Part shown: positions 4,629-56,990 of the stretch, in pieces | Numbering within the stretch: position 1 is the first letter of the stretch | How the letters are laid out: each line of letters begins with the position of its first letter | NCBI GenBank assembly: GCA_019695305.1 | Contig: JAIBAG010000005.1 | Location: 3,361-67,360 of the forward strand | DNA from: a bacterium | GTDB taxonomy: Bacteria > UBA10199 > JAIBAG01 | Direction of reading: 5' to 3' | DNA: 64,000 nt | The notes under the pieces: generated by a model | The model's database searches: none | The model's input: only the letters and a program-made list of their open reading frames with translations | Told to the model about the DNA's origin: nothing | Translations under genes and position numbers: made by a program

Positions 4629-5477
4629 ATGCACGGTTTTTTCCTCATCGATAAACCAGCCGGAATTTCGTCTAACAAGGCGCTTAGCCAAATTAAAAGA
4701 AATCTTAAAATTAAAAAAATGGGCCACACGGGCACGCTCGATCCTTTTGCCCAAGGTTTACTGGTGGCTGCCTCGGGCGAGGCCACAAAGTTTATATATT
4801 ATCTGGAGGCAGCTGATAAATGCTATGAAGCAAAGCTTCAATTAGGTGTTAAAACTGATACTTTAGATAGTTATGGACAAATACTTGAAAAACAAGATAT
4901 TTCTAAAATAGATAAAGATAAAATTGAGTCTGTTTTTAATCAGTTTTTAGGCCCTCAACTACAAATACCACCGATGTTTTCGGCTAAAAAAGTGGATGGA
5001 GATAAACTGTATGACTTAGCCCGGAAGGGAATCGAAGTGGAGCGGAAGGCATGTTCCATTGAGATTAAAAAACTAGTGTTATTGGATCAGCAGTCCGATT
5101 CAATGAGCTTTGAAGTCGTCTGTTCCAAAGGAACCTATGTGCGGGTGTTGGGCGAAGATATTGCGGGGGCCTTAGGTAACTTGGGACACTTAAGTTATCT
5201 TAAACGGATATCGAGTGACGGGTTTAATGTGAAGGATGCCTTGGCGCCGGAAAAACTTAGCGGGATGAGTATTCCACTTGAGAAACTTCACCATTACCTC
5301 AAATATCCATTATTCACTTTGGATGAGACTAGTATCACAGCGTTAAAGGCAGGAAAGTTTGTAGCGCACTCTCAAGCAGGAGGTTTATACTCCGTTCTAA
5401 ATGACAAGGAAGAGTTCTGTGGCTTGGTTAAAAGCGAAGGCGCGCTTTTAAAACCAGAGCGCATGGCAATGGTGTGA
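4629..5477 (+). CDS. truB: tRNA pseudouridine(55) synthase TruB
   Basis: 282 aa with the HGFFLIDKPAGISS...GHTGTLDP catalytic-Asp motif. Conserved position after rbfA. Confidence 0.93.
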   Translation: MHGFFLIDKPAGISSNKALSQIKRNLKIKKMGHTGTLDPFAQGLLVAASGEATKFIYYLEAADKCYEAKLQLGVKTDTLDSYGQILEKQDISKIDKDKIESVFNQFLGPQLQIPPMFSAKKVDGDKLYDLARKGIEVERKACSIEIKKLVLLDQQSDSMSFEVVCSKGTYVRVLGEDIAGALGNLGHLSYLKRISSDGFNVKDALAPEKLSGMSIPLEKLHHYLKYPLFTLDETSITALKAGKFVAHSQAGGLYSVLNDKEEFCGLVKSEGALLKPERMAMV

Positions 5478-5478
5478 A

Positions 5479-5572
5479 GAGTAACCCACCCTGTCCCTCC
5501 CTTAATCTAAGGGAGGGAACGTTCTTGGCCCCTCCCACTTAAATTAAGGGGGAGGACGGGAGGGGGTTACTC
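5479..5572. repeat. nested-palindrome MITE/REP-like element, copy 1
   Basis: GAGTAACCCACCCTGTCC + hairpin (CCCTCCC-TTAATCTAA-GGGAGGG) + spacer + second hairpin (CCCCTCC...GGGGGAGG) + GGGAGGGGGTTACTC. The termini are inverted repeats. The family recurs at 6795, 37954, 39194 and 50606. Its 3' terminal GTTAC provides the TAA stop of the convergent minus-strand gene. Confidence 0.85.
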
Positions 5573-6739
5573 CCCGTACAGCAAATACTTCTCACTACTT
5601 TTCACAAACGCTTTTGTCTCCGTCTCCCAACTTTGATACAGCTTGTTCAAATCACCTTTTTCTTCCACGCATTCCCGGTAAGCCGAACTTCCGGTTAGAA
5701 GATCAATGGCCGGAATCTCATCAACAAATTCATAAGGCTTGGCTCTCCATTTAAAATCGTTCGGGTAAAGATCTTTCAGTGTTTTAAGCAATACACAGGA
5801 GAGATAAAGCGGGATAATTTTGTTTCGATCGGTAATGTGAATCTGCAAGCCGCCACAATTCTGCATGGCTGCCTTTTGAAAAGTAGGGCGATAATAAATG
5901 GGACGGAGATGAAAGCCATCGAAACGATAATTATTTAAGGTCTCTAGCCAACGATACGGATCGATAAAGGGAGCGCCGATAAATTCAAAGGGTTTTGTTG
6001 TGCCGCGGCCTTCTGATAAGTCTGTTGCTTCTACCAAACACTGGCCGGGATAAACAAGGGCAGCTTCAAGTGTTGGCATGTTGGGTGACGGAAGGACCCA
6101 GGGAAGGCCGGTGTCGTCAAAATACATCGTCCTTTTCCACCCCTTCATTTTAATGATTTGCAACTTACATCCAATATTAAATTCTGTATTAAAAAGAAGA
6201 GCTAGCTCGCCAACTGTCATGCCGTGGCGATTAGGAAGAGGGTAATAGCCAACAAATGATTCGAACCCTTTTTGAACAAGAGGCCCTTCAACATCAACAC
6301 CATTAATGGGATTAGGACGATCGAGAACGATCACTTCTACGCCGGTTTTAGCGGCTGTTTGCATGCAAAAAGCGATGGTATAAATAAAGGTATAGTAACG
6401 CGATCCAATATCTTGCAAATCGCACACCAGCACATCGATATTTTTAAAATCATTTTCGGTAGGTTTTAACGATTCGAGTGTTGGTCCATACAGGCTTTTT
6501 ACCGGAAGACCGGTTTGGGAGTCTACCGACGAATCCACATGATCCATATCCTGGGCTTCGCCACGGATACCGTGCTCGGGGCCAAAAAGTTGGGTGATAT
6601 TGATTTTATTTTTGAGAAGTAAATCTACAATGTGGTTGAATTGACTATCCACACTGGCTGGGTGAGCCAACACACCCACGCGTTTCTTTTTAAGTTTGGG
6701 TAAGAAAGATGAAAGTTGACCTAATCCTGTTTTAACCAT
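5567..6739 (-). CDS. DUF1343 family protein (NamZ-like exo-beta-N-acetylmuramidase)
   Basis: 390 aa. N-terminal KRVGVLAHPASVD...LFGPEHGIRG matches the conserved DUF1343/NamZ signature as I recall it. Confidence 0.6.
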   Translation of the reverse strand: MVKTGLGQLSSFLPKLKKKRVGVLAHPASVDSQFNHIVDLLLKNKINITQLFGPEHGIRGEAQDMDHVDSSVDSQTGLPVKSLYGPTLESLKPTENDFKNIDVLVCDLQDIGSRYYTFIYTIAFCMQTAAKTGVEVIVLDRPNPINGVDVEGPLVQKGFESFVGYYPLPNRHGMTVGELALLFNTEFNIGCKLQIIKMKGWKRTMYFDDTGLPWVLPSPNMPTLEAALVYPGQCLVEATDLSEGRGTTKPFEFIGAPFIDPYRWLETLNNYRFDGFHLRPIYYRPTFQKAAMQNCGGLQIHITDRNKIIPLYLSCVLLKTLKDLYPNDFKWRAKPYEFVDEIPAIDLLTGSSAYRECVEEKGDLNKLYQSWETETKAFVKSSEKYLLYGE

Positions 6740-6794
6740 GGAGTAGTTCTAGGCTATTTAACTCTTTTTTTCTATCTTAAAATCTGTCATTCAA

Positions 6795-6912
6795 GAGTAA
6801 CCCCCTCCTGACCTCCCCCTTACTCTAAGGGGGAGGGACGTGTGCTTCTAATAATATCTAGTTATTAGTTCTCCTCCCTTAAGGTAAGGGAGGAGACAGA
6901 GGTGGGTTACTC
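6795..6912. repeat. nested-palindrome MITE/REP-like element, copy 2 (with extra internal palindrome)
   Basis: GAGTAACCCCCTCCTGACC...CCCCCTTACTCTAAGGGGGAGGG, a central CTAATAA-N-TTATTAG palindrome, CTCCTCCCTTAAGGTAAGGGAGGAG, and a GGTGGGTTACTC terminus. It lies in the intergenic region before the acyl-CoA dehydrogenase gene. Confidence 0.85.
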
Positions 6913-6930
6913 TTCGTTTGGGAAAGTTTT

Positions 6931-37170: not shown

Positions 37171-37953
37171 ATGAGTTTTGAAACTTTATTAGTAGAAATA
37201 AACGAAGGCATTGCCACGGTTCAGGTAAATCGTCCCAAGGCGCTTAATGCTATCAACCGCCAAGTACTTATTGATTTAGGCAACGCTTTTAAACAGCTGG
37301 AAGGTGATTCAAATGTAAAAGGTATCATCTTAACCGGTAACGGCGATAAAGCTTTTGTGGCTGGTGCCGATATTGTGAGTATGCAGAATATGACGGTTCT
37401 TGAAGCAACAGAATTTGGCAAGTTAGGTCATGACACCATGAAGACTATCGAAAACTGCGGTAAGCCCGTGGTTGCTGCTGTTAACGGTTTTGCTTTAGGT
37501 GGTGGTTTGGAACTGGCTCTCTCGTGCGATTTTATCTATGCCTCAAGCACCGCTAAATTGGGTTTACCTGAAGTTAACTTGGGAATTTTCCCTGGCTTTG
37601 GTGGTACTCAGCGTTTGTCGCGCTTGATCGGTAAAAACCGTGCTAAGGAACTCGTTTACACCGCTAAAATCATCTCGGCAGAAGAGGGGCTTAATATTGG
37701 TATTGTAAACAAAGTATCCGCTCCTGAAACTTTATTGGCCGATGTTAAAGCCACCTTATCTACAATTTTAACTAAAGGTTTAGTGGCTATCCGCTTAGCT
37801 AAGAAAGTGATGAATGAAGGAACGGATTTAGATTTAGCCAGTGGTTTGGCGATGGAAGAAAATACTTTCCCGTTAACATTCTCCACCGACGATAAAAAAG
37901 AAGGTGTAGCGGCGTTTATTGAAAAGAGAAAAGCTAATTTTACGGGAAAGTAA
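37171..37953 (+). CDS. enoyl-CoA hydratase (crotonase)
   Basis: 260 aa with crotonase fold motifs (AAVNGFALGGGLELALSCD, ...GIFPGFGGTQRL). Confidence 0.9.
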   Translation: MSFETLLVEINEGIATVQVNRPKALNAINRQVLIDLGNAFKQLEGDSNVKGIILTGNGDKAFVAGADIVSMQNMTVLEATEFGKLGHDTMKTIENCGKPVVAAVNGFALGGGLELALSCDFIYASSTAKLGLPEVNLGIFPGFGGTQRLSRLIGKNRAKELVYTAKIISAEEGLNIGIVNKVSAPETLLADVKATLSTILTKGLVAIRLAKKVMNEGTDLDLASGLAMEENTFPLTFSTDDKKEGVAAFIEKRKANFTGK

Positions 37954-38041
37954 GAATAACCCACCCTGTCCCTCCTTTAATCTAAGGGAGGGGACCTTCT
38001 TACTCTCCCCCTTAAGTTAAGGGGGAGTGGGAGGGGGTTAC
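37954..38041. repeat. nested-palindrome MITE/REP-like element, copy 3
   Basis: GAATAACCCACCCTGTCCCTCCTTTAATCTAAGGGAGGGGAC...CTCCCCCTTAAGTTAAGGGGGAG...GGGGGTTAC. Begins directly after the crotonase TAA. Confidence 0.85.
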
Positions 38042-38058
38042 AACGCATAAGGAAAAAT

Positions 38059-39198
38059 ATGAACTTTGAACTTTCTGAAGAACAAACAATGATTCAAAAA
38101 ATGGCACGCGATTTTGCGCAAAAAGAACTCGCGCCTTTAGCTGCCGAACGCGATGAAAAAGCGGAATTCCCTACATCTTCACTTCCTAAAATGGCGGAGC
38201 TGGGTTTGATGGGCATGATGGTTCCTGAACAATGGGGCGGAGCAGGGCTCGATATGCTCTCATATGTATTAGCTTTAGAAGAAATTTCGGCCGCTTGTGC
38301 CTCTACCGGTGTTACCATGTCGGTGAATAACTCACTCTACTGCGGACCCATCACACGTTTTGCCAATGACGAACAAAAGAAAAAGTATTTAACACCCTTT
38401 GCTCAAGGTCAAAAACTGGGAGCGTATTGCTTGTCGGAACCAGGTACCGGTTCGGATGCAGCTAACCAGCAAACAACCGCTGTTGATAAAGGCAGCCATT
38501 ATCTTTTAAATGGTACCAAAAACTTTATCACCAACGGGCCTCATGCAGATGCCATGGTGGTGTTTGCCATGACTGATAAATCTAAAAAGCATAAAGGCAT
38601 TTCGGCTTTTATTGTAGATAAAAACTTTAAGGGTTTCTCGGTAGGTAAAGTTGAAAAGAAACTTGGTATTCGTGCTTCGGCTACCTCGTCCATCGTTTTA
38701 GAAAACTGCGAAGTTCCTAAAGATTGCCTCTTGGGTGAAGTTGGCCAGGGTTTTACTATTGCCATGAATACGCTCGATTACGGTCGCATTGGTATTGCCA
38801 CCCAGGCGTTGGGTATTTCGCGCGCGGCTATTGAAGCGGCGGTAAAATACGCCAAAGAACGCGAAGCCTTTGGGCAATCCATTTCTAATTTTCAGGCCAT
38901 CCAATGGATGATTGCCGATATGACCACACGTTTTGAAGCCTCGCGCATGCTCACTTATAAAGCGGCCGAGCTTAAGCAGGCCGGTAAACCTGCCAGTGTA
39001 GAAGCGTGTCAGGCCAAACTTTTTGCCTCGGAATCGTCAAACTTCATCACCAATAAAGCCGTGCAGATACACGGTGGTTATGGCTATTGCCGTGAGTATC
39101 CCGTAGAACGTCTCTTGCGTGATGCTCGTATTACCGAAATTTACGAGGGAACTTCCGAAATTCAGCGTTTGGTGATCGCAAAGAATACGTTAAAGTAA
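38059..39198 (+). CDS. short-chain (butyryl-CoA-type) acyl-CoA dehydrogenase
   Basis: 379 aa with acyl-CoA dehydrogenase motifs (YCLSEPGTGSDAA, ...QIHGGYGYCREYPVERLLRDARI). The stop TAA lies inside the terminal GTAACC of repeat copy 4. Confidence 0.9.
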   Translation: MNFELSEEQTMIQKMARDFAQKELAPLAAERDEKAEFPTSSLPKMAELGLMGMMVPEQWGGAGLDMLSYVLALEEISAACASTGVTMSVNNSLYCGPITRFANDEQKKKYLTPFAQGQKLGAYCLSEPGTGSDAANQQTTAVDKGSHYLLNGTKNFITNGPHADAMVVFAMTDKSKKHKGISAFIVDKNFKGFSVGKVEKKLGIRASATSSIVLENCEVPKDCLLGEVGQGFTIAMNTLDYGRIGIATQALGISRAAIEAAVKYAKEREAFGQSISNFQAIQWMIADMTTRFEASRMLTYKAAELKQAGKPASVEACQAKLFASESSNFITNKAVQIHGGYGYCREYPVERLLRDARITEIYEGTSEIQRLVIAKNTLK

Positions 39199-39287
39199 CC
39201 CCCTCCCGTCCTCCCCCTTAGCCTAAGGGGGAGGGGCTAAGAACGCTCCCTCCCTTAAGCTAAGGGGGGGGTGGGGTGGGTTACTCT
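39194..39287. repeat. nested-palindrome MITE/REP-like element, copy 4
   Basis: AGTAACCCCCTCCCGTCCTCCCCCTTAGCCTAAGGGGGAGGGG...CTCCCTCCCTTAAGCTAAGGGGGGGTGGGGTGGGTTACTC. It supplies the stop codon of the upstream acyl-CoA dehydrogenase gene. It also creates a spurious in-frame N-terminal extension (MGWVTLL) of the downstream ORF. Confidence 0.85.
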
Positions 39288-39291
39288 TCTT

Positions 39292-40944
39292 ATGACCAAG
39301 AACCTTAAAGAATGGGAAGAGGGGACTTTAAAATCCTTTCTCGCTAAAGCGCCGGAGTCACAGAAAGAGTTTACCACTCTTTCGTCCGAACCCATCGAGC
39401 GTTTATACACGGCCGATCAAGTAGGCCAGAATCATCAAGAAGACATTGGTTTTCCCGGCGAATATCCTTTTACGCGCGGTGTTTATCCCACCATGTATCG
39501 CGGTAAATTATGGACCATGCGGCAGTTTGCCGGGTTTGGAACTCCCGAAGATACCAACACGCGTTTCCACTATTTGTTATCTCAGGGGCAAACGGGTCTC
39601 TCAACCGCTTTCCATTTTCCTACACTCATGGGTTATGACAGCGACTCGCCCCGTTCGCGCGGTGAAGTGGGCGTGTGCGGCGTTGCAGTTGATTCTCTGG
39701 CCGATATGGAAATTCTTTTTAAAGGAATTCCACTGGAAAAAGTAACGGTATCCATGACAATCAATGGCCCGGCCAGCATTCTTTTAGCCTTTTATCTGGC
39801 CAATGCCGAGAAACAAAAATGTGATCTTAAAAAAGTGGGCGGCACCATACAGAACGATGTTTTAAAAGAATATATTGCTCAAAATTCATATTTGGTTCCA
39901 CCGGATCCTGCCATGCGTATAGTGGTGGACATGATCGAATATTGCTCTCAGCATGTGCCCAAATGGAATCCCATTTCTATCTCCGGTTATCATATCCGCG
40001 AAGCAGGATCTACTGCTGTTCAGGAGTTAGCCTTTACCATTGCTGATGGTGTGGCTTACGTGGATGCTTGCATCAAACGCGGGTTAGATGTGGATAGCTT
40101 TGCGCCGCGTCTCTCGTACTTTTTTAATGCACACATGGATTTCTTTGAAGAAGTGGCCAAGTATCGTGCAGCCCGTCGTTTATGGGCACGCCTCATGAAA
40201 GAACGTTTTGGTGCTAAAAAAGCGGAATCCATGAAATGCCGCTTCCACGTTCAAACCGCGGGTTGTAGTTTAACCGCTCAACAACCCGAAAATAATATTA
40301 TCCGTACCACGTTGCAGGCTCTCTCGGCCGTTTTGGGTGGCTGCCAATCGCTTCATACTAATTCCATGGATGAAACATTGGCATTACCTACCGAGAAAGC
40401 CGTGCAGATTGCTTTAAGAACTCAACAAGTCATCGCGTTTGAATCTGGCGTGACCAACACCATTGATCCTTTGGCCGGTTCTTATTTTGTCGAAGCCTTG
40501 ACCGATAAAATGGAAAAAGAAGCCATGGCCTACATCGAAAAAATCGATAGTTTGGGCGGCATGGTAGAGGCGATTAAAAAAGGGTTTCCCCAGATGGAAA
40601 TTGTTTTGGCCAGCCACAAGTATCAAAATCAGCTGGAGAAAAAGGAAAAAATTGTAGTGGGGGTGAATGAATTTATTACCGATGAAAAACCGAATACTGA
40701 TTTGTTAAAGGTAGATTCCGAGGCAGTGACCAAAAAACAGACGGAACGCTTGAATGCTTTAAAAGCGAAACGCGACAGCGAAAAAGTGAATGCTGGTTTA
40801 GCTGCTTTAAAAGCTTCTGCTTCGTCCAAAACCAATATTTTCCCCGATTTACTGGCCTGTGCTCATGCTTATTGTACTGTGGAAGAAATTTCGAACGTGT
40901 TGCGGGGCGTTTTTGGCGAGTATCACGACCCCGGTATATACTGA
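39292..40944 (+). CDS. B12-dependent acyl-CoA mutase, large (substrate-binding TIM-barrel) subunit; ICM-like (Gln at MutB-Arg207 position)
   Basis: FTRGVYPTMYRGKLWTMRQFAGFGT...QNDVLKEYIAQNSYLVPP aligns to the MutB block QNDILKEFMVRNTYIYPP. The carboxylate-binding Arg is replaced by Gln. The subunit split of about 550 + 133 aa matches IcmA/IcmB-type mutases. I take the start at MTKNLKEW. Confidence 0.8.
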   Translation: MTKNLKEWEEGTLKSFLAKAPESQKEFTTLSSEPIERLYTADQVGQNHQEDIGFPGEYPFTRGVYPTMYRGKLWTMRQFAGFGTPEDTNTRFHYLLSQGQTGLSTAFHFPTLMGYDSDSPRSRGEVGVCGVAVDSLADMEILFKGIPLEKVTVSMTINGPASILLAFYLANAEKQKCDLKKVGGTIQNDVLKEYIAQNSYLVPPDPAMRIVVDMIEYCSQHVPKWNPISISGYHIREAGSTAVQELAFTIADGVAYVDACIKRGLDVDSFAPRLSYFFNAHMDFFEEVAKYRAARRLWARLMKERFGAKKAESMKCRFHVQTAGCSLTAQQPENNIIRTTLQALSAVLGGCQSLHTNSMDETLALPTEKAVQIALRTQQVIAFESGVTNTIDPLAGSYFVEALTDKMEKEAMAYIEKIDSLGGMVEAIKKGFPQMEIVLASHKYQNQLEKKEKIVVGVNEFITDEKPNTDLLKVDSEAVTKKQTERLNALKAKRDSEKVNAGLAALKASASSKTNIFPDLLACAHAYCTVEEISNVLRGVFGEYHDPGIY

Positions 40945-41002: not shown

Positions 41003-41404
41003 ATGCAAAAGAAACTCCGCATCTTAATTGGTAAACCCGGCTTAGACGGCCACGATCGTGGCGCTAAAATTATTGCACGTACCCTGCGTGATGCTGGTTA
41101 CGAGGTAATATATTCAGGTTTACACCAAACTCCTGAGATGATTGTGAACACGGCTATCCAAGAAGATGTGGATGCGATTGGGCTTTCTATTTTATCTGGC
41201 GCTCACAACTATCTTTTCCCTGCCGTAATTAAGCTTTTAAAGGCTAATAAAGCTGAAGATGTGGTGGTATTTGGTGGCGGTATTATCCCCGAAGACGAAA
41301 TTGCTGGCCTTAAAAAAGAGGGCGTAGCCGAGATTTTTACTCCCGGCGCCGACACCCGTGATATCGTCAAATGGATTGAGTCTAACGTCCAGCCGCGTAT
41401 ATAG
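41003..41404 (+). CDS. acyl-CoA mutase small subunit (cobalamin-binding domain)
   Basis: 133 aa with B12-binding DxHxxG...([21 protein letters not shown]) and a Rossmann-like fold. The last 5 codons lie inside the first unit of the 41-bp tandem array. Confidence 0.85.
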
Positions 41405-41529
41405 ATGAGTACCAAGGCCGTCCTTTAGGGCAGCCGCGTATATAGATGAGTACCAAGGCCGTCCTTTAGGGCAGCCGCGTATATAGATGAGTACCAAGGC
41501 CGTCCTTTAGGGCAGCCGCGTATATAGAT
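41390..41529. repeat. perfect 41-bp direct tandem repeat, 3.4 units
   Basis: Unit CAGCCGCGTATATAGATGAGTACCAAGGCCGTCCTTTAGGG. Copies lie at 41390, 41431 and 41472, with a partial copy at 41513. Unit 1 overlaps the stop of the B12-subunit gene. Confidence 0.95.
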
Positions 41530-49051: not shown

Positions 49052-50149
49052 ATGGATCCTTTTTTACAGTCAATAGAACATAAAATTGATAATGCAATTA
49101 GGCTTACCACCGATGATGCCTTAAAGCTTTATGAAACCAATGATTTAGTAGCTTTAGGCAAACTGGCCAATAAAGTACGCGAAAAAAAACACGGCTCTAA
49201 AACCTATTATATTGTGAACAAGCATATCGATTATTCCAATGTGTGCGTTCTTTCCTGCAAATTTTGCGCTTTTTACCGCCGTAAAGGTGAAGAGGGCAGT
49301 TTTGAGTATTCCATCCAAGACATTGTAAATAAGGTAAAATCGGGCGTTCCTAAAGGGATTACAGAAGTCCATATTGTGGGTGGTTTTCATCCCACGCACC
49401 CTTGGGAATTTTATACGGGCATGGTGCAGGCTATTAAAAAGGAAGCGCCGCATGTGCATGTAAAGGCTTTTACAGCTGCCGAAATTCGCTATTTTTCCAA
49501 ACGCTTTAAAAAAACAGAAGAACAGGTATTAAAAGAACTGATGGTTGCAGGCCTTGATTCGATGCCTGGTGGTGGTGCCGAAATTTTTGATTGGGAAGTA
49601 CGCAAAGAAATTTGCGGGCCCAAGGGGCCGGCTGAGCAATGGATTGATACGCATCGTTTAGCGCACAAGATGGGATTAAGAAGTAATGCTACAATGCTAT
49701 ATGGTCATATAGAAAATTTAAGACATCGCGTAAATCACATGGAAACTGTACGTACCTTACAGGATGAAACGGGCGGTTTTTTGTCGTTTATTCCTTTGTC
49801 TTTTAACCCCAAAGATACCGAATACGAAAGCCGTGGTTATACCAGCGGCATGGATGATTTAAAAACCTTGGCTGTGGCTCGCCTCTTTATGGATAATATC
49901 CGCCATATTAAAGCCTATTGGATTATGTCCGGTTTAGAATCCGCACAACTCGCCCAATATTTTGGTGCGGATGATTTGCATGGTACCGTGATGGAAGAAA
50001 ATATCACACACATGGCCGGCGGCATTGCCCCCGAAGACATGCCTGATTATCAATTACGCAATCTTATTTTTGAATCGGGCCGTACTCCTGTAGAACGTGA
50101 TTCGCTGTATAACGAACTGCGTACTTTTACACCTTCTTTAGTAGCTTAA
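49052..50149 (+). CDS. radical SAM enzyme of the CofH/MqnC/MqnE family (futalosine menaquinone pathway)
   Basis: 365 aa with CxxxCxxC (CKFCAF) and mqnC/mqnE-type conservation. Confidence 0.8.
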   Translation: MDPFLQSIEHKIDNAIRLTTDDALKLYETNDLVALGKLANKVREKKHGSKTYYIVNKHIDYSNVCVLSCKFCAFYRRKGEEGSFEYSIQDIVNKVKSGVPKGITEVHIVGGFHPTHPWEFYTGMVQAIKKEAPHVHVKAFTAAEIRYFSKRFKKTEEQVLKELMVAGLDSMPGGGAEIFDWEVRKEICGPKGPAEQWIDTHRLAHKMGLRSNATMLYGHIENLRHRVNHMETVRTLQDETGGFLSFIPLSFNPKDTEYESRGYTSGMDDLKTLAVARLFMDNIRHIKAYWIMSGLESAQLAQYFGADDLHGTVMEENITHMAGGIAPEDMPDYQLRNLIFESGRTPVERDSLYNELRTFTPSLVA

Positions 50150-50887
50150 TTCCACTTCACCAATAATCCCGTGACATTTTGTATGGGTGGCAACGATAGC
50201 ATGGGTGGTTTTGTTACTCATCAGACGTTCCCATTCGTTAGCAATTTTTTGAATAGAAATACCCACCACGCCGTAAGCTAATTGCGGGCAGTTGAAGATA
50301 TGTGCGGTGTGGGTTTTATTTTCAAACTTCATTTTAAGATCTGCGAGCGATAGCTCAAAATCCCAATCGCGTTTATCATTTTTACCAGGGCAAAAGGAGG
50401 GCTCATCACAATCGATAGGGCATACCCAGGTGGCGTAACTGATGGCGCATACGCCTGAATCAAAAGTTTTTTGGAAGGGGAGATTAAGATCGGTTTCAAA
50501 GTTTTTGATTTGAGTTTTAATATTTTCTTGTTCTGCTAATTTGAGAAAAAGCTGAAATAGAACATGCGGGGCGGTGTGATCGGGGATTAAGATATCAAAA
50601 GAACCTACCCCACCTGGCCTCCCCTTACAAAGGGGAGGAACGTTTTTTTTCCCTCCTTTGTAAGGAGGGGTTAGGGAAGGTAGAGAGCTTAAAAAACCGG
50701 CATACGTGTTTACAATTTGCTTTACTTCCGGATGTTCTTTTGCGGCCCAACCGCCAAGCACTTCATCTATATAATAGATGTTATTAAAATGAAGAAGTCC
50801 CTCGTTTTGGGCACGTTTTAGTTTGGTGATGTAATCGGAGGAGAGTTTGTGGGAACCTAAGACGTAGATGTTACGAATAGTGGTCAT
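50138..50887 (-). CDS. hypothetical Cys-rich protein co-transcribed with gltBD, carrying an in-frame MITE/REP-like element insertion
   Basis: 249-aa ORF. Its start overlaps the gltD stop by 4 nt. Residues about 68 to 95 (TPPYKGGKKNVPPLCKGRPGGVG) are encoded by the palindromic element at 50606..50684. The C-terminal part has the metal-binding-like CPIDCDEPSFC. Confidence 0.55.
   Translation of the reverse strand: MTTIRNIYVLGSHKLSSDYITKLKRAQNEGLLHFNNIYYIDEVLGGWAAKEHPEVKQIVNTYAGFLSSLPSLTPPYKGGKKNVPPLCKGRPGGVGSFDILIPDHTAPHVLFQLFLKLAEQENIKTQIKNFETDLNLPFQKTFDSGVCAISYATWVCPIDCDEPSFCPGKNDKRDWDFELSLADLKMKFENKTHTAHIFNCPQLAYGVVGISIQKIANEWERLMSNKTTHAIVATHTKCHGIIGEVELSY
50606..50684. repeat. MITE/REP-like element copy 5, degenerate termini, inserted in frame in a CDS
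   Basis: CTACCCCACCTGGCCTCCCC-TTACAAA-GGGGAGGAACG-T8-CCCTCCTTTGTAAGGAGGGG-TTAGGGAAGG. The termini read CTACC...GGTTAGG instead of GTAAC...GTTAC, so no stop is introduced. Confidence 0.75.
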
Positions 50888-52317
50888 CCCCGTAATTCCG
50901 AATACCCCATCAAATGCTCATCAATAGCTTTGGCACACTGGCGGCCTTCGGCAATGGCCCAAACAATCAGCGATTGACCGCGGCGCATGTCACCAGCAGT
51001 AAAGACACCTTTTACGCTCGTCATCTTGTTTTTATCGGCTTTTACATTGCCGCGTTCGTCGATTTCGAGTTTGAGATCGGTTAAAAGATTCTTTTTATCG
51101 GGGCCCACAAAACCCATGGCTAAAAAGACATAATCGGCCGGTAAGCTAAATTCGCTGCCCGGGATTTCTTTAAAGCTGGTTTTGCCATTGGCATCTTGCG
51201 TCCATTCAATTTTTACAGCGTTAAGTTTTTTAACACCGTTTGCATCACCTTCAAAATTTTTGGTGAGGATGGCAAATTCACGCACGCCACCTTCGGCGTG
51301 GGCCGTGGACACACGGTAAATCACCGGCCATTGTGGCCAGGGGTTTTTAGCATCGCGTGTTTCGGGAGGACGGCTTAAAAGTTCAATCTGATGAATGCTT
51401 TTAGCCCCCTGACGGTGAGCAGTACCCAAACAATCGGCACCGGTATCACCACCACCGATGATAATCACATTTTTATCTTTTACATTGATGGCATCTTTAA
51501 CTTCCATGCCGGCATTAAGACGGTTCTGGCGAGTTAAATATTCCATCGCAAAATGAATGTTTTTAAACTCACGGCCGGGGATGGGGAGATCACGAGGGAT
51601 GGTTGATCCACCGCACAAGGCAACAGCATCAAAATCTTTTTTAAGTTGGTCGGCGGTGATGTCTACACCTACATTCACGCTGGTCTTAAAGGTAACGCCT
51701 TCGGCTGTCATCTGTTCCATACGCGTATCAATACGGTATTTTTCCATTTTAAAATCAGGGATACCATAACGGAGGAGGCCACCGATTTTATCATCACGTT
51801 CAAAAACGGTAACGCTATGACCGGCACGCGCTAATTCCTGCGCACAAGCAAGTCCTGCAGGGCCGCTACCTACTACAGCCACTTTTTTGCCCGTTTTACT
51901 TTTTGGAGGCAGCGGTTTTACCCAGCCTTCTTTAAAAGCATGGTCGATAATATTAAATTCGAGATATTTAATGGTAACAGGTGGCTCATGTATACCCAGC
52001 ACGCACGAACCTTCGCAGGGAGCGGGGCAGAGGAGACCGGTAAATTCCGGAAAATTATTGGTGGCATGCAGTTCATCAATGGCATCTTTCCATTGATTTT
52101 TGTACACCATGTCGTTCCAATTGGGGATTAAGTTTCCTAAGGGGCAGCCCTGATGGCAAAAGGGCACGCCACAATCCATACAACGGGCGCCTTGTTTCTT
52201 GATTTCTTCTTCGGGATACTCGAGATAGAGTTCCTTATAATCTTTTAAACGTTCCGGAATAGCGCGCTCGGGGTAGGAGGTGCGTTTATATTCCATGAAG
52301 CCAGTTGGTTTACCCAT
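50884..52317 (-). CDS. gltD: glutamate synthase small (beta) subunit
   Basis: 477 aa with N-terminal 4Fe-4S Cys clusters and the FAD/NADPH dinucleotide motif [14 protein letters not shown]. Confidence 0.92.
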
Positions 52318-55300: not shown

Positions 55301-56902
55301 TTGCTTAAAATAAAAAAACAGTGATTGTGGTTTTTCAGATAAGACAGCCAGTGAGGTATCGGTTCCCATAGAACCCATGCCTTCCTCACCGTTCACAATC
55401 ATAGGTGTGAGTAAGATTTTAATATCTTCATCGGTGTAGCCAAACAAATTTTGCTTTTTAAGCAAAGTAGAATGGTCGGGCTGCGGATCGTGCGAAGATG
55501 CGGGTAAATCGTCTAGTGCTACTAAATGTTTTTTGAGCCATTCCCCATAAGGCTGTTTGCGCACCAACTCATTTTTAATTTCTTCGTCTTCAATAATGCG
55601 TCCTTTTACCGTGTCCACCAAAAACATACGGCCGGGTTGCAGACGTCCTTTTTTAACCACTGTTTCAGGTGCAATATCATCTAAAACACCCACTTCACTG
55701 GCTAAAATGACTAAATCATCTTTGGTTACATAAAAACGTCCGGGGCGTAATCCGTTACGATCAAGCACAGCACCAGCCATGTGACCATCGGTAAAACCGA
55801 TATAGGCGGGACCATCCCAGGGTTCCATAAGGGAAGCGTGATATTCGTAAAAATCTTTTTTATCTTGCGGCATGGTTTTATGCCCGCTCCAGGCTTCAGG
55901 AATCATCATCATGATGGCATGAGGAAGCGAATAACCGCTGTGCACCAATACTTCTAATGCATTATCAAAAATAGCCGAGTCGGAATAACCTTCGGAAACA
56001 ATGGGCAATATTTTTTCAAGTTCGTTGCCAAAGTTTTTAGATTCAAACATGGCCTCACGAGCCCGCATCCAGTTAATGTTGCCGCGTAGAGTATTAATTT
56101 CACCGTTGTGGCAAATAAAACGGAACGGTTGTGCTAATTCCCAACGTGGAAATGTATTGGTAGAAAAACGGGAGTGCACAAGCGCAATAGCCGATTGTAA
56201 AAGCGGATTGGTTAAATCTTTAAAGAATGGACGGACCTGGTGCGAGATGAGCATCCCTTTGTAAATAAAAATACGTGAAGAAAGAGAAGGAATGTACACC
56301 GAGGCTTTATCCACCAAGGTAGAATTTTTTACAGTTTTTTCAAAAGTTTTACGGATGATATAAAGCCTACGTTCAAAAGCCTCTTCAAAAGTACCAGGTA
56401 AATTAGGACCTTTGTCGCCCACGCCAATAAACACTTGTTCAAAATGAGGCATGGGTTCACGCGCTGTGGGCCCAATCATGCTATCATCAATAGGAATTTG
56501 GCGAAAACCCAACAGTGTTTGCCCGTTTTCAATCACAATGCGTTTTAGCATTTCACGGGTTTTATCGCGTTCGCTGGCTAGTTTTCCCGACAGAAAAATG
56601 AGACCAGAGGCGTATTTCCCTTTTTCGGGCAAATCGATATTGTTTTCTTTAGCTACAGCCACGTTAAGCGCATGCGGCATTTGAATAAGGATTCCGGCGC
56701 CATCACCAGTATTTTCTTCACAACCGCAGGCCCCGCGATGCTCTAAATTTTCAAGAGCAGTAAGAGCCTTGCTCACAATGTCGTGCGAGGCGATGCCTTT
56801 CATTTGCACCATTAAAGCCACACCACAGCTGTCTTTATCGAGTGAGGTATTATAAAGGCCGTCATTACTTTCGGCTATTTTGCGTCGTTCTAATTCGTTC
56901 AT
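52310..56902 (-). CDS. gltB: glutamate synthase large (alpha) subunit
   Basis: 1530 aa with an N-terminal amidotransferase (CGVALMV...), the FMN/3Fe-4S central domain and the C-terminal GXGXG domain. Overlaps gltD by 8 nt. Confidence 0.95.
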
Positions 56903-56917
56903 TTAAATACAAGTGGA

Positions 56918-56990
56918 TGGTGGGTAGTGGATAGTCAATGGAAGAAGAAAGCCTTATGCCGTCCACCATCCACCATCCACCATGCACTTT
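56918..56990. promoter_or_regulatory. inverted repeat built from the GTGGATGGTGG motif in the gltB leader
   Basis: GTGGATGGTGGGTAGTGGATAG...N...CCATCCACCATCCACCATG. The arms are complementary and could form a long hairpin. The motif is shared with the sctV upstream region. Confidence 0.55.

Follow-up and report, generated by a model that had tools for sequence, protein, structure and literature searches.

Palindromic repeats lying in frame within unrelated genes were described in Rickettsia as Rickettsia palindromic elements (RPEs; Ogata et al. 2000, 2002), as presented in two later papers (PMC10969869, PMC3733652). Intragenic copies of repetitive extragenic palindromic (REP) sequences tagged GTAG or CGTC have also been reported in several species by Di Nocera et al. 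(2013), who found that more than half of intragenic REPs are dimers or groups coding for 20-30 aa, that these may occupy flexible loops and that orthologues can carry different REPs at one site (PMC3733652). Intragenic cases of ERIC, BOX and QMITE1 are covered in a 2024 review (PMC10969869). Here we report an 81-nt palindromic element that is read in frame by the gene following gltD in a bacterium of the UBA10199 lineage. The stretch of DNA analysed, hereafter the window, is 64 kb of the 133-kb contig JAIBAG010000005.1 (positions 3,361 to 67,360). The element is a pair of inverted units, each made of a CTACC-containing "head" and a short hairpin, and we call the family to which these units belong the CTACC family. 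The explanation that we favor, and hold to be probable, is that a variable loop at the protein surface passively tolerates this stop-free repeat dimer of 81 nt. Rickettsia and other bacteria are already known to have palindromic repeats in frame, and the window element is a fresh example rather than a fresh principle. An earlier note on this DNA, which called such tolerance a hallmark of RPEs and rarely described elsewhere, overstated its rarity in view of the intragenic REPs (PMC3733652) and the ERIC, BOX and QMITE1 cases (PMC10969869).

Comparison with RPEs, as the literature describes them, reveals a similar behavior and a different make-up. Like the window element, RPEs lie in frame in unrelated genes, encode a family-specific peptide and are tolerated in loops compatible with the fold. 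They are CGTC-tagged (PMC3733652), whereas the window element ends in CTACC/GGTAG; they measure about 100-150 nt as against 81 nt; and a large share of their copies in Rickettsia is genic, compared with ~5% of the CTACC-family units sampled. The host is not a Rickettsia either, its nearest relatives by IF-2 being metagenome-assembled genomes (MAGs) labelled Deltaproteobacteria (58-67% identity). With no CGTC tag and a non-Rickettsia host, the element is not an RPE by definition; the two are set apart by description.

The GTAG- and CGTC-tagged REPs come closer in form. They and the CTACC units are short, G+C-rich stem-loops found as singles, inverted dimers and groups, mainly intergenic at gene 3' ends with a minority in open reading frames (ORFs), where dimers code for 20-30 aa. 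In REPs, 5'-GTAG is followed directly by the hairpin (5-13-bp stem), whereas the CTACC unit reads 5'-CTAC-(9 nt)-(3 nt)-hairpin. The stem of 8-9 bp and the loop fit the GTAG-REP definition, but the unit as a whole is not a GTAG REP by that definition, because its tetranucleotide has the opposite polarity (CTAC on the 5' side of the hairpin) and stands at a distance of 13 nt from the stem. The phyla that carry the CTACC family, such as Nitrospirota, Acidobacteriota and the candidate phyla radiation, are largely outside the Di Nocera survey (PMC3733652). REPINs (REP doublets forming hairpins; Bertels and Rainey; PMC8049555, PMC5581495) resemble the window copy in having two inverted REP-like units with a short spacer and an imperfect hairpin of ~80 nt. 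However, REPINs are moved by REP-associated tyrosine transposases (RAYTs) and are usually lineage-specific, while the recurrent neighbor of CTACC units is DUF559 and the family is nearly identical across phyla. [quoted passage not shown] Since CTACC units occur singly and in both dimer orientations, they are more REP-like than MITE-like.

The element and its host gene

The host gene (50138..50887, minus strand) encodes a 249-aa conserved hypothetical protein of PF27252 (AF_1314_C), as indicated by precomputed Pfam annotation and homologue alignment, and the protein is identical to NCBI 'hypothetical protein K1X76_03930 [bacterium]'. Upstream in the same operon is gltD, encoding the glutamate synthase small subunit (50884..52317, minus strand; Pfam Fer4_20 and Pyr_redox_2), which is preceded by gltB (1530 aa; start at 56902). 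Reading of the sequence showed that the host start codon ATG and the gltD stop codon TGA overlap in ATGA (50884..50887, minus strand), in agreement with the coupling to gltD that the earlier note had claimed. A Pfam search of the host ORF with a release older than PF27252 gave no family matches, and a Foldseek comparison of the host model with the PDB gave no match at E <= 0.001.

Within this ORF, the CTACC/TTACAAAGG family of palindromic repeats is represented by a complete "head-out" dimer (50605..50685, minus strand), its 81 nt equalling 27 codons, L69-G95, which span 50683-50603 on the minus strand. The dimer was also detected as an imperfect inverted repeat (I8; 50605-50683) with arms of 36 nt that are 72% complementary and spaced by 7 nt. 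Read on the plus strand, unit 1 opens with its head, CTACCCCACCTGG (50605..50617), with CTACC exactly 13 nt before the hairpin. Hairpin 1, CCTCCCCTT-ACA-AAGGGGAGG (50618..50638), has a perfect 9-bp stem and is an exact match to the pattern found in at least 120 genome stretches. The center or joint of the dimer, AACGTTTTTTTT (50639..50650), codes for K80-K81-N82-V83 on the minus strand and is the most variable portion across the dimers compared. Unit 2 follows in reverse orientation, with hairpin 2, CCCTCCTT-TGT-AAGGAGGG (50651..50669), forming a perfect 8-bp stem, and with its head in reverse complement, GTTAGGGAAGGTAGAG (50670..50685), whose minus-strand end is the family consensus CTCTACC. 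The ends of the whole copy are ACCTACC...GGTAGAG. The 18-mer hairpin core has two matches in the window, where 0.02 would be expected, and the GC content of the insert is 53%, compared to 40.8% for the rest of the host gene and 41.6% for the window. RNA folding of the element region predicted -41.9 kcal/mol (z = -3.6) on the coding strand and -48.9 kcal/mol (z = -4.75) on the other. An Rfam search of 50300-51000 produced sub-threshold microRNA-precursor matches alone (28 bits, where the gathering score is 87). Such matches are what any long hairpin may give and do not point to a known RNA family, and a microRNA-precursor identity was dropped.

No stop interrupts the ORF as it crosses the element, and the translation there is ...GFLSS-LPSLTPPYKGGKKNVPPLCKGRPGGVG-SFDILIPDH..., with SFDILIPDHTAPH as the segment after LPSLTPPYKGGKKNVPPLCKGRPGGVG. 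The stop-free read-through reported in the earlier note, at about 26 residues, was thus recovered as one frame of 81 nt and 27 codons, and the 27-residue insert peptide is rich in Pro, Gly and Lys. Within a 91-nt segment around the copy, the open frames are +2 and -1. The peptides NVPPLCK and GRPGGVGSFDILIPDHTAPHVLFQLFLK would be diagnostic of read-through, and flanks without the element (an empty allele) would join as ...TTTTTAAGCT/GTTCTTTTGAT....

The host protein was compared with 16 homologues of 33-47% identity, all with precomputed PF27252. Both sides of the element are conserved in the alignment, and every one of the homologues (16/16) has a gap of 17-19 columns at the element. An indel of 26 residues had been expected; absence of the segment from orthologues was borne out, while its length was not. 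All 34 invariant columns of the family are kept in the window protein, with no other lesion in its 249 codons. They include the motif I101-P-D-H-T-A-x-H (IPDHTAPH in the window protein), which comes shortly after the insert, and a Cys-rich motif, C-P-x-x-C-x-E-P-x-x-C-P, at 156-167, which is modelled with low confidence. A syntenic orthologue, P0015, is 40% identical and lacks the insert; its contig carries gltD (479 aa), the PF27252 gene (248 aa), a cNMP-binding gene and, on the other strand, a radical-SAM CofH_C gene, which is how these genes are arranged in the window. The order gltD, PF27252 gene and opposite-strand radical-SAM CofH/MqnC-like gene is thus conserved between two distant genomes (window 49052-52317 and L124:362-4162). 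A metagenome scan for the gene flank beside the insert, as would mark empty-site or sister alleles, returned no matches.

AlphaFold modelling with the homologue alignment gave a mean predicted local distance difference test score (pLDDT) of 82.4 and a predicted template modelling score (pTM) of 0.81. Residues 76-94 had a pLDDT below 50, and no secondary structure was predicted for 73-96, between helix 62-72 and strand 97-101. In the model, then, the insert behaves as a disordered loop while the rest of the fold is confidently predicted, in line with the loop that the earlier note had foreseen. The possibility that the ORF is really two genes was also considered, and since the homologues span both halves as one protein, it is not. 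Taken together, the conserved flanks, the homologues without the segment and the low-confidence loop rule out both two genes and native sequence. The observation itself is therefore confirmed, and its interpretation is partly supported: the RPE-like behavior proposed for this locus, in-frame insertion into a genuine single gene, is borne out, whereas the proposed origin of the copy (see below) is not.

The CTACC family and its GTAAC relatives

The hairpin pattern CCYCYCCTTACAAAGGRGRGG was scanned in 185,579 species-representative genomes and was found in at least 120 stretches, with ~4 expected by chance from the information content of the pattern. Family statistics were taken from 168 units in 120 loci with 0.9 Mb of surrounding DNA. 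Among the matches listed, most were in Nitrospirales MAGs; the other hosts included Acidobacteriota, Bacteroidota/Ignavibacteria, Planctomycetota, Pseudomonadota, Cyanobacteria (Microcoleus), Parcubacteria/Nomurabacteria, Elusimicrobia, Omnitrophota, Nitrospinae, Bdellovibrio and more. Some of these genomes have several copies (e.g., three loci in OZ245029.1), and near-identical elements of 75-81 nt occur in Nitrospirota, Acidobacteriota, Cyanobacteria, the candidate phyla radiation and the window's lineage. The source genome of the window was not itself among the matches listed. Over its full length, the window ORF copy is 87% identical to an intergenic dimer of a Nitrospira MAG (L005), and 83% and 82% identical to two intergenic dimers (L028 and L021, respectively) of 'bacterium SO_2017_GW3_31', of which the L028 copy reads GATCTACCCCACCCTTGCCCTCCCCTTACAAAGGGGAGGGGATGTCCCCTCCTTTGTAAGGAGGGGCTAGGGGAGGTAGATC. 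Judged by these alignments, the ORF copy is a well-preserved head-out dimer of a widespread CTACC family, and CTACC is its native end. A full-text literature search with the hairpin sequence and the encoded peptides yielded chance primer matches alone.

The consensus of the 168 units is (C)TCTACC(C/T)C(C/A)CCT, 2 nt and the hairpin, with terminal repeats CTCTACC...GGTAGAG. The hairpins are C-rich and have the form CC..TTACAAAGG..GG, their loop region being of the TTACAAAG type. In 91 of the 168 units, and in both arms of the window copy, CTACC is placed exactly 13 nt ahead of the hairpin. With respect to pair orientation, the 120 loci contain 35 head-in and 6 head-out pairs plus singletons; the window copy is of the head-out kind. 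All three frames of the consensus forward unit, from head to hairpin, are open (LYPTWPPLTKGR, STPPGLPLQRGG and LPHLASPYKGE). The reverse unit has one open frame, PPLCKGRPGGVG, the other two meeting TAA in the loop or TAG in the head. It follows that a dimer has exactly one open frame per strand, an expectation matched by the compact dimers and by the window copy.

Within the 120 loci, 20 long ORFs read through a CTACC-family unit, and for eight of these Pfam confirms a gene, with a domain match that runs across the insert. They encode a Pyr_redox_2 protein (L035), PurH (L048), a PALP enzyme (L074), two histidine kinases with the insert within HATPase_c (L069 and L091), a DUF255/thioredoxin protein with four tandem PPYKGE units (L110), an RsmI-like methylase with two units (L122) and AcrB (L114). 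The in-frame hosts belong to Acidobacteriota, Parcubacteria, Ignavibacteriales, Cyanobacteria, Elusimicrobia and others, and the peptides encoded include SPPYKGG, PPLTKGR, SPYKGEG and PLLCKEG. PF27252 itself provides a further case. Its member P0006 has its own single in-frame unit of 57 nt, SNSPPHPTLSPKGE (L001:10687-10743), at a site different from that of the window insert. This unit is absent from P0005, an 81% identical protein, and from P0002 (loci L126 and L123 compared), making a clean filled-versus-empty pair, and no obvious target duplication surrounds the 57-nt insert. The Exo_endo_phos-like gene next to P0006 has an in-frame hairpin (L001:9768-9805), and its 79% identical orthologue has a different hairpin, also in frame, at the same site (L123:4243-4263). 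These unrelated hairpins at one site suggest a hot spot or repeat replacement, and they parallel the site sharing seen for REPs in orthologues.

The window also contains four intergenic copies of another palindromic family, detected as inverted repeats and with a profile, which we call GTAAC elements. They lie at 5476..5572 (plus strand), 6793..6915 (minus strand, with a longer center), 37952..38042 (plus strand) and 39193..39289 (minus strand), and they have GAGTAAC heads and CCCTCCCTTAAnnTAAGGGAGGG hairpins. Like the ORF copy, they follow the plan of head, hairpin, GGAACGTT-like center, hairpin and head, with TA(A)CCCCACC as the head core. Unlike the ORF copy, their GAGTAAC heads and TTAAnnTAA loops give stops in all six frames, and all four (4/4) are intergenic. 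They sit exactly at gene ends, and for three of the four, the TAA that terminates the neighboring gene is overlapped or supplied by the element and falls within GTAAC or AAGAATAAC (5567-5569, 37951-37953 and 39196-39198). Two inverted pairs each bracket one gene over ~1.2 kb (5567-6739 and 38059-39198). A composite transposon or insertion sequence with GTAAC copies as its ends was considered and rejected, the bracketed genes being ordinary: judged by eye from translations, a 390-aa ORF (5567..6739) and an acyl-CoA-dehydrogenase-like ORF (38059..39198). A profile built from the four copies matches the ORF copy at 50602-50679 with E = 1.1e-5 and 20 bits, while it scores its own copies at 84-102 bits. 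This resemblance of the ORF copy to the intergenic elements of the window is real but weak. By sequence comparison, the GTAAC and CTACC families are related, and the ORF copy is distinct from the four GTAAC copies.

Explanations for the insert

Under passive tolerance, a compact head-out copy of a mobile, REPIN/MITE-like palindromic repeat would have inserted into the gene downstream of gltD. The insertion would have survived because its 81 nt are a multiple of three, because the frame that was hit contains no family stop codon and because it landed in a length-variable loop, between helix 62-72 and the strand leading into IPDHTAPH. The 27-residue peptide would then be carried as a disordered surface decoration. 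We infer from the comparisons above that arrival was probably transposition-like, and we predict continued production of a working protein, with an insert that has no effect on fitness either way. Several points weigh against this explanation. The insert ends 5 residues before IPDHTAPH, the most conserved motif of the family, which makes neutrality an assumption. The net length difference to the homologues is 17-19 aa, versus 27 element-encoded residues, which implies either the loss of some native loop or a short loop in the ancestor. The CTACC family is represented in the window by one copy, and its mobility in the source genome is presumed. The best ORF homologue is 47% identical and the best IF-2 is 67% identical, too distant to offer an empty-site allele from which the exact boundaries and any target duplication could be read. 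Lastly, production of the host protein with its insert is predicted from the gene.

It is unlikely, in our view, that the insertion inactivated the protein and left a young pseudogene that is still open by chance. The make-up of a dimer leaves one of three frames open, and so an open ORF after insertion is not strong evidence of selection. The closeness of the insert to the invariant IPDHTAPH, a hairpin of -42 kcal/mol inside the mRNA and a host protein known from the gene alone would all suit a pseudogene as well. Against this, the ORF has no second lesion and keeps 34 of 34 invariant residues, its ATGA coupling to gltD is intact, and the rest of the fold is confidently modelled. Moreover, the same units lie in frame in many unrelated essential-type genes and in P0006 of PF27252 itself.

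It seems quite improbable that the element has been co-opted, whether as RNA, with a structure in the gltBD-ORF transcript that would block 3'-5' decay or make translation pause, or as a peptide, with a basic, Cys-containing loop that would have a function of its own. In favor of co-option are the predicted stability of the hairpin, the action at the RNA level ascribed to REPs that lie downstream of genes (PMC3733652) and the position of the window's GTAAC copies exactly at gene 3' ends. Nevertheless, the insert is conserved in no homologue, and the same units occur at unrelated positions of unrelated genes, which argues for passive tolerance.

According to the earlier note, the insert was a degenerate copy of the window's GTAAC element whose termini mutated from GTAAC to CTACC, thereby removing a TAA. 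We consider descent by decay from a GTAAC copy, with termini and loops changed under selection to lose TAA, to be very unlikely. The common architecture with its GGAACGTT-type center, the GTAAC profile match and the stops that GTAAC copies have in six frames all speak for it. However, the insert is far closer to the CTACC copies of other genomes (82-87% identity) than to the local copies, to judge from its 20 bits as opposed to their 84-102 bits. The consensus drawn from 168 units of many phyla has CTACC heads and TTACAAAG loops, and both hairpins of the insert are perfect, with no sign of decay. In the frame used, GTAAC would also read GTA-ACC and offer no stop to remove. Since CTACC is the family consensus and GTAAC is harmless in this frame, the idea of stop removal fails. 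That a repeat-mediated chimeric join put the element into the ORF is extremely improbable: the source is a MAG and the repeat is shared with abundant Nitrospira genomes, yet the flanks together make up one gene, its halves correctly ordered, sharing one frame and aligning end to end with homologues, a state that such a join would not recreate.

Passive tolerance of the dimer, if correct, adds one case, from a little-known uncultured lineage, of a selfish palindromic repeat borne by a protein. The stop-free frames of the CTACC family would explain its tolerance in genes, while the stop-rich GTAAC sister family in the same genome stays intergenic. Stop content may thus be the reason why some repeat families can enter genes and others cannot. 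For annotation, the peptides PPYKGG, PLTKGR and PLCKGR could serve as markers of repeat-derived segments, which inflate protein lengths and disturb alignments in MAG proteomes.

DUF559 neighbors and other repeats

One family of nine ORFs recurs in the 0.9 Mb of loci, and the five of its members compared with Pfam are DUF559 (Vsr-like endonuclease fold; E = 1e-30 to 1e-35). In each of the nine, a unit overlaps an end or lies no more than ~130 nt away from it, as is the case for only 16% of all long ORFs in the 120 loci. These DUF559-like genes are found at L093:4700-5160, L012:2160-2880 and L082:2540-3170, and also in L114, L044, L066, L057, L061 and L051. Units usually flank them on both sides with heads towards the gene. 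The upstream order of hairpin, head, ~12 nt and ATG recurs across phyla; downstream, the stop is followed by 1-2 nt, head and hairpin, and in two cases the TAA stop is inside the hairpin loop. The consistent flanking of these genes (Vsr-like PD-(D/E)XK) by units makes DUF559 a candidate mover. On this arrangement of genes and units, DUF559 may move the units, may target them or may merely share intergenic "junk" regions with them. No DUF559 gene is present in the 64-kb window, and a literature search found no paper linking DUF559 to palindromic repeats.

A broader proposal, which is possible but which we put forward tentatively and regard as doubtful, is that the units form an undescribed cross-phylum family of coding-competent palindromes, in frame in conserved enzymes of at least six phyla and propagated by, or at home in, DUF559 genes rather than RAYT transposases. 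If true, RPE-like behavior would extend to a pan-bacterial scale, a new candidate for the mobilising enzyme would be at hand, and DUF559 would gain a function. Were the DUF559 association causal, it would give a testable answer to how RAYT-less REP-like repeats move. A phmmer search with the Y1_Tnp protein of L123 against the ORFs of the 120 loci and the window found no RAYT-like match, at the limited sensitivity of a single query. The gene for that protein (a weak Pfam match, RAYT-like) and a 158-aa ORF are flanked by an unrelated REP, GGGCAGGCCCCTGTGCCTGCCC (L123:5230-6414). This arrangement is REPtron-like and lies beside the PF27252 gene of a related genome.

Three further repeats were observed in the window. 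Short GTGGATGGTGGATAG-type repeats, direct and inverted, occupy two intergenic regions (25813-25862 and 56913-56987), with one such site just upstream of the gltB start (56902), and a role as shared regulatory sites is possible. At 41390-41529, in the spacer between ORFs ending at 40944 and 41550, the 41-nt sequence CAGCCGCGTATATAGATGAGTACCAAGGCCGTCCTTTAGGG is repeated perfectly in tandem, with 3.4 copies of 100% identity. Lastly, a 21-nt periodic repeat, GATGAAAAT..AACGCTGG, with at least four copies of 71-73% identity, lies at 18892-19006, outside ORFs of at least 200 aa.

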